Assembly (NCBI GenBank): GCA_046290465.1
Contig: JBKAGP010000001.1
Coordinates: 5,920,001-5,984,000 of the forward strand
Direction: 5' to 3'
From: Planctomycetota bacterium
GTDB taxonomy: Bacteria > Planctomycetota > UBA1135 > UBA2386
DNA: 64,000 nt
Shown: piece by piece, positions 30,001-33,000 of the stretch
Layout: the number at the start of each line of letters is the position of its first letter
How positions within the stretch are numbered: the stretch's first letter is position 1
Made by a program: the position numbers

Positions 30001-33000
30001 GCGCAGCGCTGCGCTTCGGCCTCGCCCACCACCAACTGCTCACCGGCGACCGCGATGCGGCCCGGGCCGCGCTCGAGCAACTCGCCGCCGACCCTGGCTG
30101 GGCCTCCTTCGGCGTGATCGCCGCCGAAGCCGAACTGCAGCGCCTGTAGCTGCCCGTTCCGAGCCGCCTCTTCGCGAGCCTGGTTCCGCGACGAGACCTG
30201 TCCGACCGGACGTCCGGTCGCGCTGCCGGGGTTCGCGCGACGGAAGTTGCAGGATGAACCGCGTACCGTACTGCAACTTCCGTTGCGGGGCGCAGGCGGA
30301 ACGGCTCGGGGGTGGGCGGAAGTTGGAGGTTGAACCGCGTACCGTACGGCAACGTTGGGGGGATAAAAAACGGGCCCCGGTGAGGCACCACCCCACACCG
30401 AGGCCCATCCCTGCCACTGGGCCCACGCCCAGGCGTTTCTTTCCACCGGTCGCGTAGGAGCACACCCCGTGCCGGTGAGCTTTGCGATTGCGAGTTCTTT
30501 GGTGGGTTGGTGTAAGTCGCTGTGTCGAAGGTGGATGCGGTGTCGCGTGGATGTCCCGGTGCGGGCGGTGGGCCGCAGCCGTCGGAAACCTGACGGCATC
30601 CCGACACGGGTCGCCGACGATCCGTCGAGGAGCCGACGGCAGGGTGGCGCAGGACGTTACGGCTGCTCGGAAGCCTTGGCGCGCTGCCAAGCCGCCTCCA
30701 GCTCATCCAGGCTGCGTCCGCGCAGCTCGTAGTCGAACGTGCGCTCGACCGCAGCGAAGCGCCGCTGGAACTTGTCGGCGGTGTTGGCCAGCGCGGTCTC
30801 GGGGTTCACGCCGAGGTGGCGCGCCAGGTTGCAGACGCTGAACAGCACGTCGCCCAGTTCGTCGGCGATCGCCGCGGCGTCGCCGGCCTCGATCGCCTCG
30901 TCCAGCTCGCCGACCTCCTCGTCGAGCTTCTGGCGCGGGCCCGCGCGGTCCGGCCAGTCGAAGCCGACCTTGGCCGCCTTCTGCCCGACCCGGTAGGCGC
31001 GCAGCAGCGCCGGCAGCGCCGACGGCACCCCGGACAGCACGCTGCGGTCGACGCCCTTGTCGGCCTTCTCCCGCTGCTTCTGCCGCTCCCACGTCTCGAG
31101 CGCAACTTCGGCGCTGTCGGCCTGCTGGTTGCCGAACACGTGCGGGTGGCGCCGCACCAGCTTGTCGGCGGCAGCGCCCGCGACCTCGTCGACGCCGAAG
31201 CTGCCGTGTTCGCTGGCGATCTGGCCGACCATCGCGACGTTGACCAGCACGTCGCCTAGCTCCTCCTTCGCCTCGTCGGTCGCGTCACGACGCAGCGCGT
31301 CCGCGGCTTCGAACGCCTCCTCGAGCAGGCACGGGGCCATGCTCGCGGTGGTCTGCTTCCGGTCCCACGGGCAGCCGTCGGGTGCGCGCAGGCGGGCGAT
31401 CGTCGCGAGCAGGTGAGAGATCCCCGGCAGGTCGGCCATGTGCACAACCTTAGGGCTACGGCACGGATGCCACGAAACGGTTTCGGTGTGGGGGCCGCAT
31501 GTCCTATCGTCGCCGATCGCACGTGCTTCTCGACGGTCGCCCGACCGACGGGGCCGTGCATCCATTACCCGAACGACCCCAACTGCGAATCATGGCACTG
31601 CAACTTCCCGAACTGCCCTACTCGAAGGACGCGCTCGCGCCGCACATCAACCAGCAGACGCTGGAGATCCACCACGGCAAGCACCACAACGCCTACGTCG
31701 TCAACGGCAACAAGCTGATCGACGGCACCGAGTACGCCGACATGTCGACCGAGGACATCATCAAGGCGACGGCGGGCAAGGCCGACAAGGCCGGCGTCTT
31801 CAACAACGCCGCGCAGGTCTGGAACCACACGTTCTACTGGCACTCGATGAAGCCGGGCGGCGGCGGCAAGCCGACGGGCGCGATCGCCGAAAAGATCGAC
31901 AGCGACCTCGGCGGCTACGACAAGTTCGTCGAGCTGTTCAGCCAGGCCGGCGCGACCCAGTTCGGCAGCGGCTGGGCGTGGCTCGTGCTCGAGAACGGCA
32001 AGCTGGCGGTCAAGAAGACCCCGAACGCCGAGACCCCGATCACGCAGGACGGCGTCACGCCGCTGCTGACCATGGACGTCTGGGAGCACGCCTACTACCT
32101 CGACTTCCAGAACCGCCGTCCCGACTACATCAAGACGTTCCTCGCGAGCCTGGTGAACTGGGACTTCGCCAACGAGAACCTGGCGAAGGCGTAGGCCTTC
32201 GCCAGCCGCCGCTCCGCCGCTCTCCTCACCTCGTGACGTCCAACCGTCGCCGCAAGCAGAAGGCCCAGTCGATGGGCCTCACCGAAGCCGAGCTGCAGCT
32301 CACCGAGCTGCTCGGCCAGGTTCTGGAGCTGCTGCGTTGGAACCAGGTGCTCGGCTACAGCAACCAGTACCTGCTGCACGAGAAGCTCGGCCTGACGGCC
32401 GAAGAACGGCACCGCGTGATGAAGGCCGCGGCCGGCGCGGTCGAGGCCGACGGCCGCATGCAGGACTGGGGCCAGCGGCTGCTGGAGATCCAGGAGTCGC
32501 TGACCGCGATCCACGAACGCATGACCGGCGAGCGCCTCGAGAAGCCGTCCGCGCCGGGCCAGGAGCGGGGCGACGACGACGCCGGCGCCGCCGAGGCGGC
32601 GCATGGCTGAGCAGCCGCGCACGCCGATCAGCGGCTGCGTGATCTGCTACCAGGAGGCCGACCGCATCGCCGACTGCCTGCGCTCGCTGTCGTTCTGCGA
32701 CGAGGTCGTGGTGGTCGACAGCGGCAGCACCGACGGCACCCAGGCGATCGTCGAGCAGCTCGGGGCACGGCTGATCACCAACACGCCGTTCCCCGGCCAC
32801 AAGCAGCAGAAGCAGTTCGCCGTCGAGCAGGCGCGCCACGACGTCGTGTTCTGCCTCGACGCCGACGAACGGTGTACGCCCGAGCTCGCTGCGCGCATCG
32901 CCGAACTGCAGTGCGACGGCCGGCAGGGCCCCGGCCAGCAGGACGACGGCCAGCAGGGCGACGGTCTGCCATGCGACGGCTACGAGACGCCGCGCCACAA

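Follow-up and report, generated by a model that had tools for sequence, protein, structure and literature searches.

The locus behind mazG in this planctomycete genome raises the question of whether a conserved stretch in which no gene is called is a gene in its own right and, if so, what its product does. The window is a 64,000-nt stretch of DNA (contig JBKAGP010000001.1, positions 5,920,001 to 5,984,000), and coordinates refer to it unless a contig position is stated. The element lies within a 290-bp stretch behind mazG, where the first-pass annotation had placed a stand-alone sigma-54-driven sRNA on the minus strand. We are highly confident that this is a real sigma-54-driven non-coding RNA gene. 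It makes up an sRNA family that we take to be real and not described before, belonging to a regulatory kind already known and having a predicted function. The features of the locus are:

30365..30448, minus strand: predicted sRNA of 84 nt, from the predicted +1 through the last U of the tract.
30459..30474, minus strand: sigma-54 (-24/-12) promoter, recognised from the sequence and kept in 81 of 81 f1 copies.
30439..30446, minus strand: box 1, the purine-rich 5' arm GUGGAAAG, defined by conservation in f1 copies.
30417..30432, minus strand: hairpin 1, with a loop that varies in sequence and length.
30408..30416, minus strand: box 2, UGGCAGGGA, the element common to families f1 and f7.
30365..30406, minus strand: intrinsic terminator with a GC-rich stem, a GUGGUG loop and six U.
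30503..30543, no strand assigned: AT-enriched spacer with a weak IHF-like site at about 30513-30525, from base composition and consensus.
30577..30640, no strand assigned: putative enhancer of CCGWCGG-like heptamers at 11-bp spacing, from enrichment and periodicity.
30657..31439, minus strand: mazG (Pfam MazG, E 3e-35), the upstream neighbour, outside the RNA gene.

The promoter reads CGGCAC-N5-GTGCT, with GG at 30473-30472 and GC at 30461-30460. The spacing is exactly GG-N10-GC, and the box was found in all 81 copies examined from family f1, which bears out the earlier claim of a -24/-12 box at fixed spacing on this strand. The predicted +1 at 30448 is the canonical 12 nt past the C of the -12 GC and coincides with the start of blast similarity to relatives, in which the ends of conservation fall at 30448 and 30365 (query 113-196). 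Counted from 30448 to the last U, the RNA is 84 nt long, not 85 nt as first given, and its transcription is predicted from these sequence features. The distance from the promoter to the 5' GUGG is 12-14 nt in 68 of the 81 copies; most of the remaining values arise where the spacer itself contains a GUGG further 5', and in two copies the leader is longer.

The purine-rich 5' end, short hairpin and terminator described previously are all present in the sequence and the predicted fold. In box 1, GUGG is found in 81/81 f1 copies, GUGGA in 79/81 and the full 8-mer in 68/81, while the linker GGCAGGGA of box 2 is kept in 76/81, the GUGGUG terminator loop in 62/81 and TTTT in 80/81; the model that supplied the copies contains the same motifs, which biases these counts upward. 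An outer stem of hairpin 1 with a bulged G is predicted in many copies. The terminator stem extends over approximately 30406-30372 and is followed by a six-U tract at 30370-30365. The 84-nt RNA has a fold z-score of -3.17, with 0 of 200 shuffles equally stable, and parts of both boxes are predicted to be paired in the fold of this genome's copy. Among 21 copies, two-sided changes occur in 8 of the 14 pairs of the terminator and in 1 of the 7 in the hairpin, a level reached by 0 of 500 shuffles in a control that is inflated by the relatedness of the sequences. The terminator stem thus keeps its pairing despite sequence change, as had been proposed. An Rfam scan of the locus found no family at its gathering score, in agreement with the first-pass annotation.

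Three long minus-strand ORFs cross the RNA region and a hexamer model calls none of them. The next gene called by that model lies on the opposite strand and ends at 30149; no gene follows on the minus strand, as had been stated, and the neighbours of the RNA are convergent in most relatives. A riboswitch or 5' leader is excluded because there is no regulated same-strand gene downstream. The sequence evidence as a whole agrees with a stand-alone sigma-54-driven sRNA: the promoter accompanies each of the 81 copies, the two move and duplicate together, and no reading frame is kept.

Of 91 family genomes, 79 carry the RNA according to a covariance model built from 21 copies, as do 30 of the 31 that are near-complete; this genome has a single copy. 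The 81 copies examined were extracted from 76 of the 79 positive genomes. By blast, it was found in 13/14 genus genomes and 20/24 family genomes; the earlier counts of 5/5 and 15/40, respectively, were too low. Among 13 genus genomes the RNA is 78-100% identical, against 42-62% for flanks of equal length and 71-81% for mazG DNA; in all 12 genus genomes that allow the comparison, the RNA is more conserved than mazG DNA. The description 'near-invariant' is therefore apt for the genus and close genera, but in the wider family conservation is limited to the architecture and two short boxes. Tandem copies are present in six genomes, approximately 300 bp apart in five, and each of the five extracted pairs has two promoters, indicating that the RNA moves and duplicates together with its own promoter. 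A mazG gene is directly upstream of 67 of the 81 copies and not of 11, with too little flank in 3, where previously one copy had been placed away from mazG. A PMT_2-family gene is next to or near the RNA in four of the copies away from mazG. A pattern scan of species-representative genomes gave at least 120 matches, and 38 of the 80 titled ones listed fit the model. Of these 38, 36 are titled Planctomycetota and 2 uncultured bacterium; all are metagenome-assembled, and L149 is labelled CL500-15.

A longer form of the RNA, approximately 163-190 nt and new here, is present in 11/11 genomes of the sister family f7. It lies behind mazG in 10/11, the eleventh contig being too short, and the downstream genes differ from those of f1. 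The promoter is canonical in 10/11 copies and has GT in place of GC in one, and 11-bp arrays are found at 9 of the 10 f7 loci having upstream sequence. The three f7 loci viewed by eye each showed array, promoter and longer RNA. The long form folds strongly (z -7.5), and UGGCAGGGAA ahead of the terminator and a UCAGGC loop are invariant in 11/11 copies. Box 2 is kept and the 5' part is rebuilt. When segments behind mazG from 28 loci were scored with the unfiltered f1 model, the f7 segment ranked first (15.8 bits, E 0.012). The f1 and f7 RNAs appear to be homologous, an assignment based on the locus, enhancer, promoter and GCAUGG...UGGCAGGGA motif; the model score itself is not strong. Comparison of the short and long forms defines a functional core, and the chaperone and target questions are therefore testable with an 84-nt synthetic RNA.

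Other families carry a tRNA-like gene or other sequence behind mazG, as judged by eye. The f1 model found nothing convincing in 106 other-family genomes, where 7 weak matches inspected by eye are without promoter or architecture. A joint f1 and f7 model applied to 151 genomes of the class gave strong matches in f1 and f7 only, but it also missed known f7 copies, so this result does not establish absence from other families. None of its 23 weak matches elsewhere has a sigma-54 box within 200 nt, and six have none within 800 nt. No match to the RNA was found in viral contigs. Family f2 (L320, L322, L323) has a different conserved non-coding element of approximately 90 nt located 60-230 bp behind mazG, with complementary ends, a pyrimidine-rich middle and no Rfam match at gathering level. 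In two genomes of one f10 genus (L425:740-1020 and L428), a conserved stretch of approximately 270 nt without protein match contains a hairpin plus GGCAGGGA and a U-rich hairpin, with no sigma-54 box and no Rfam match; it is possibly another non-coding RNA or the end of a mobile element. A further f10 genome (L413:915-989) carries a c-di-GMP-I-GGC riboswitch above the gathering score.

CCGWCGG-like heptamers cluster 70-210 bp upstream in f1 loci, with 4.5 per locus versus 1.5 in shuffles and genome background, and 103 of 283 successive spacings are 11 bp. The array at the RNA locus ranks first among the 248 intergenic sigma-54-like boxes of this genome. With a matrix built from other genomes, this one excluded, it ranks third genome-wide, and the two sites outranking it have no sigma-54 box nearby. 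Between array and promoter, the AT fraction of the spacer is 0.44-0.50 versus approximately 0.27 upstream. At most two mismatches to the IHF consensus were found in 45/81 copies versus 124/1000 random windows.

From this arrangement we infer a putative enhancer array that would be served by a largely dedicated activator. The host genome encodes two copies of rpoN together with 24 sigma-54 activator domains. For about six of the activators, orthologs turned up in each of the three relatives tested (30 of their 35 activator loci were compared); one of the six adjoins flagellin genes, and none of them stood out as the one for the array. As the RNA is found in nearly every family genome and has an apparently dedicated enhancer, it is probably a core regulator of these uncultured bacteria. 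The two rpoN genes are full-length paralogs at contig positions 1163559 and 6171486. Elsewhere in this genome, sigma-54 boxes at contig positions 134658, 5208846, 5179719, 3711788 and 4643912 precede genes whose products, from their N-termini, we take to resemble groEL, small heat-shock protein, clpB and DUF1328 proteins. These boxes hint at a sigma-54 stress regulon.

Short invariant boxes amid freely varying stems are the usual anatomy of seed-based sRNAs, and their occurrence here favours seed-based pairing as the predicted mode of action. A dedicated sigma-54 enhancer-binding protein would bind the 11-bp-periodic array, the DNA would bend at the AT-rich spacer, and sigma-54 polymerase would make the 84-nt RNA, stopping at its own terminator. 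Two short purine-rich boxes, chiefly UGGCAGGGA beside the terminator, would then act as seeds and pair with C/U-rich stretches of mRNAs encoded elsewhere. Pairing would proceed without Hfq, perhaps aided by an RRM protein. We give an even chance to this statement as a whole, base-pairing included, namely that the RNA is a signal-gated, Hfq-independent, trans-acting base-pairing sRNA. Genome-wide, leaders are C-rich with little average Shine-Dalgarno signal and an A peak at -11, and the 16S anti-Shine-Dalgarno sequence is canonical; because the leaders have this composition and so little Shine-Dalgarno signal, G-rich seeds would have plausible partners.

Of the known chaperones and their partner proteins, the search covered Hfq, CsrA, FliW, RapZ and KhpA/B but not ProQ/FinO (PF04352). 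None of 101 genomes of the order yielded Hfq, and FliW was found in 0 of 121 genomes. CsrA was found in 1 of 91 family genomes, and 4 f7 genomes gave no CsrA over the cut-off. This genome, which is 94% complete, yielded neither RapZ nor KhpA/B. With Hfq, CsrA, FliW and RapZ not found, action of the CsrB or GlmY type fails. This genome encodes five RRM_1 proteins, which may be candidates for a chaperone role. As described in PMC11697453, an RRM protein binds sRNAs in Bacteroides, which is without classical chaperones.

No conserved targets were found with exact-match words, excluding G-U pairs and coding-region sites, in partial samples. The complement of the two boxes was counted 174 times over 61 genomes, fewer than the 251 occurrences of the reversed control, and in sets of 44 and 30 loci that were inspected no gene came up repeatedly with a site in its leader. 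Across 3033 leaders, box complements show no enrichment over permuted words, and a ranking of duplexes in 4896 leaders gave no outlier. Several candidates were set aside. A two-box site immediately before a start codon at contig position 1413572 is absent from the 44 inspected loci of relatives, and an 11-nt site by a strong Shine-Dalgarno sequence at 1357496 is in a region of low coding score beside an integrase-like gene (labelled by eye). Another site, ahead of an argS-like gene, lies inverted in one genome relative to a second. An excess of the box-2 complement plus ATG was discarded because the reversed control differs in word frequency. Pairing with the anti-Shine-Dalgarno sequence is weak for the boxes (-6.4 and -8.1 kcal/mol), and that of the terminator loop (-13.9) involves paired bases. 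Sensing of tRNA 3' ends via UGGN motifs was likewise rejected, as there is no T-box architecture and no Rfam match.

The failure to find mRNA targets would also fit a protein decoy, in which the GGA/GUGG boxes mimic ribosome-binding regions and titrate an RNA-binding repressor other than CsrA, of RRM type or unknown fold. We regard this as possible but rather unlikely. GGA is present in both boxes (79 and 78 of 81 copies), GUGG occurs three to four times, and box 2 in this genome is CAGGGAUG, which resembles the CsrA site; however, there are only two GGA sites, and CsrA is itself nearly absent and FliW, RapZ and KhpA/B were not found in the searches above. Dosage through tandem duplication would be in keeping with titration. 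The bulged outer stem is kept across families (G-C in 47/50, C-G in 48/50), but these pairs barely vary and are therefore no proof of structure. CAGGG[AG] occurs in three flagellin leaders of this genome versus 35 of 4771 genes overall, but the motif was found in only 6/23 f1, 0/8 f7 and 1/18 f10 flagellin leaders, and near-complete genomes that lack flagellin still have the RNA, leaving a weak flagellin link. A more specific version, which we consider doubtful, makes the RNA the decoy arm of an undescribed post-transcriptional switch titrating an RRM-type or unknown repressor, with f7 as the precursor-like form and f1 as the minimal module. The structured 5' domain of f7 would have been deleted in f1, leaving the minimal active module.

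An improbable alternative is a role in cis, with the element lying between mazG and the convergent nqr-apbE-TPR operon and serving either as antisense RNA or as a bidirectional terminator. The purine 5' arm would then be conserved as the T-rich tail of a plus-strand terminator. Hairpin 1 (30417-30432) and the T-rich tail do score as terminator-like on the plus strand, and many f1 loci have a convergent apbE or TPR gene. RNA libraries are relevant here, and runs from four studies (4 of 24 listed) were examined. Each yielded one contig over the core, 95-100% alike, from unstranded data that may hold DNA. All four unstranded contigs run 113-167 nt past the U tract of the terminator, with no discrete transcript among them; three stop within the 5' arm, 5-13 nt into it, where a plus-strand 3' UTR would be expected to end, and one reaches 15 nt upstream of +1. 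Because the contigs are unstranded and no DNA run was compared, they neither support nor refute the 84-nt RNA. They do place the lineage with the RNA in freshwater, marine and biofilm libraries. A cis role leaves unexplained the promoter in 81/81 copies, the enhancer array, the tandem copies with separate promoters and the copies with other neighbours, and the f7 form has different downstream genes. The remaining reading, a leaderless small-peptide gene from the GUG three bases after +1, is scarcely credible and largely refuted: the frame is open and tryptophan-rich in this genome, but the distance between box 1 and box 2 falls in all three reading frames (49, 18 and 14 of the 81 copies), which argues against a peptide gene, and the frame passes through the terminator, with variation that follows base pairing.

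For the base-pairing sRNA, the best reading among known systems is that it would act most like myxobacterial Pxr, without being Pxr or an Rfam member. Pxr is described as sigma-54-driven and lineage-restricted with tandem paralogs (PMC5568312), and as working in a host without hfq (PMC5684412). In the accounts given of it, Pxr shares with the RNA described here a sigma-54 promoter with upstream enhancer, a stem-loop RNA of approximately 100 nt, restriction to one lineage, very high conservation, tandem paralogs, an Hfq-less host and direct targets that are largely unconfirmed (PMC5568312, PMC5684412, PMC11928866). However, the Pxr model (RF01812, gathering score 80) gave two matches of approximately 16.5 bits elsewhere and none at the locus. 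Pxr is also from another phylum and lies directly behind the activator gene pxrR/nla19, whereas the planctomycete RNA has mazG in that place, and the flanks examined showed no activator gene. With Pxr as the first, the planctomycete RNA would be the second sigma-54 sRNA found naturally in an Hfq-less host.

The same layout is found in GlmY/GlmZ of Enterobacteriaceae, where glmY is reported to have a sigma-54 promoter, several upstream activator sites and IHF dependence (PMC3045617). That pair differs in having no Rfam match at this locus and another activator motif, and RapZ, the protein decoyed by GlmY, was not found. Qrr1-5 of Vibrio are likewise short, terminator-ended sRNAs with paralogs, driven by sigma-54 and an enhancer-binding protein, but they need Hfq, which was found in none of the 101 genomes of the planctomycete order, and have no Rfam match here. 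The sponges CsrB, RsmY and RsmZ have GGA-containing purine boxes and many GGA hairpin loops. The planctomycete RNA has GGA purine boxes and one CANGGANG-like site, but two GGA sites only, in a family in which a single genome has CsrA.

No description of the RNA was found in literature on planctomycete sRNA, sigma-54, mazG and structured RNA, the search covering papers outside subscription, without their supplements. The figures given in a 2022 Rfam-based survey list 8 annotated sRNA families for the PVC group versus 345 for Proteobacteria (PMC9029176). The locus points to a regulatory RNA without earlier description, from a phylum that has few known ones.

Other observations concern the surroundings of the locus and the flagellin genes. 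This genome has nine flagellin matches, yet the CsrA and FliW counts for the family and the 121 genomes are 1/91 and 0/121. Four tandem flagellin genes and flaG lie beside two sigma-54 response regulators at contig positions 4654000-4671000 (L467). In the window, an nqr-like operon (labelled from translations) with apbE and a TPR protein occupies 22077-30149 (plus strand) and is convergent on the RNA, and a Fe/Mn superoxide dismutase gene at 31592-32194 (plus strand) is divergent from mazG. Two copies of a REP-like repeat, which was not seen behind the RNA in aligned relatives, lie directly behind the terminator at 30240-30355 (minus strand). This repeat family numbers 62 copies genome-wide, often arranged as inverted pairs.
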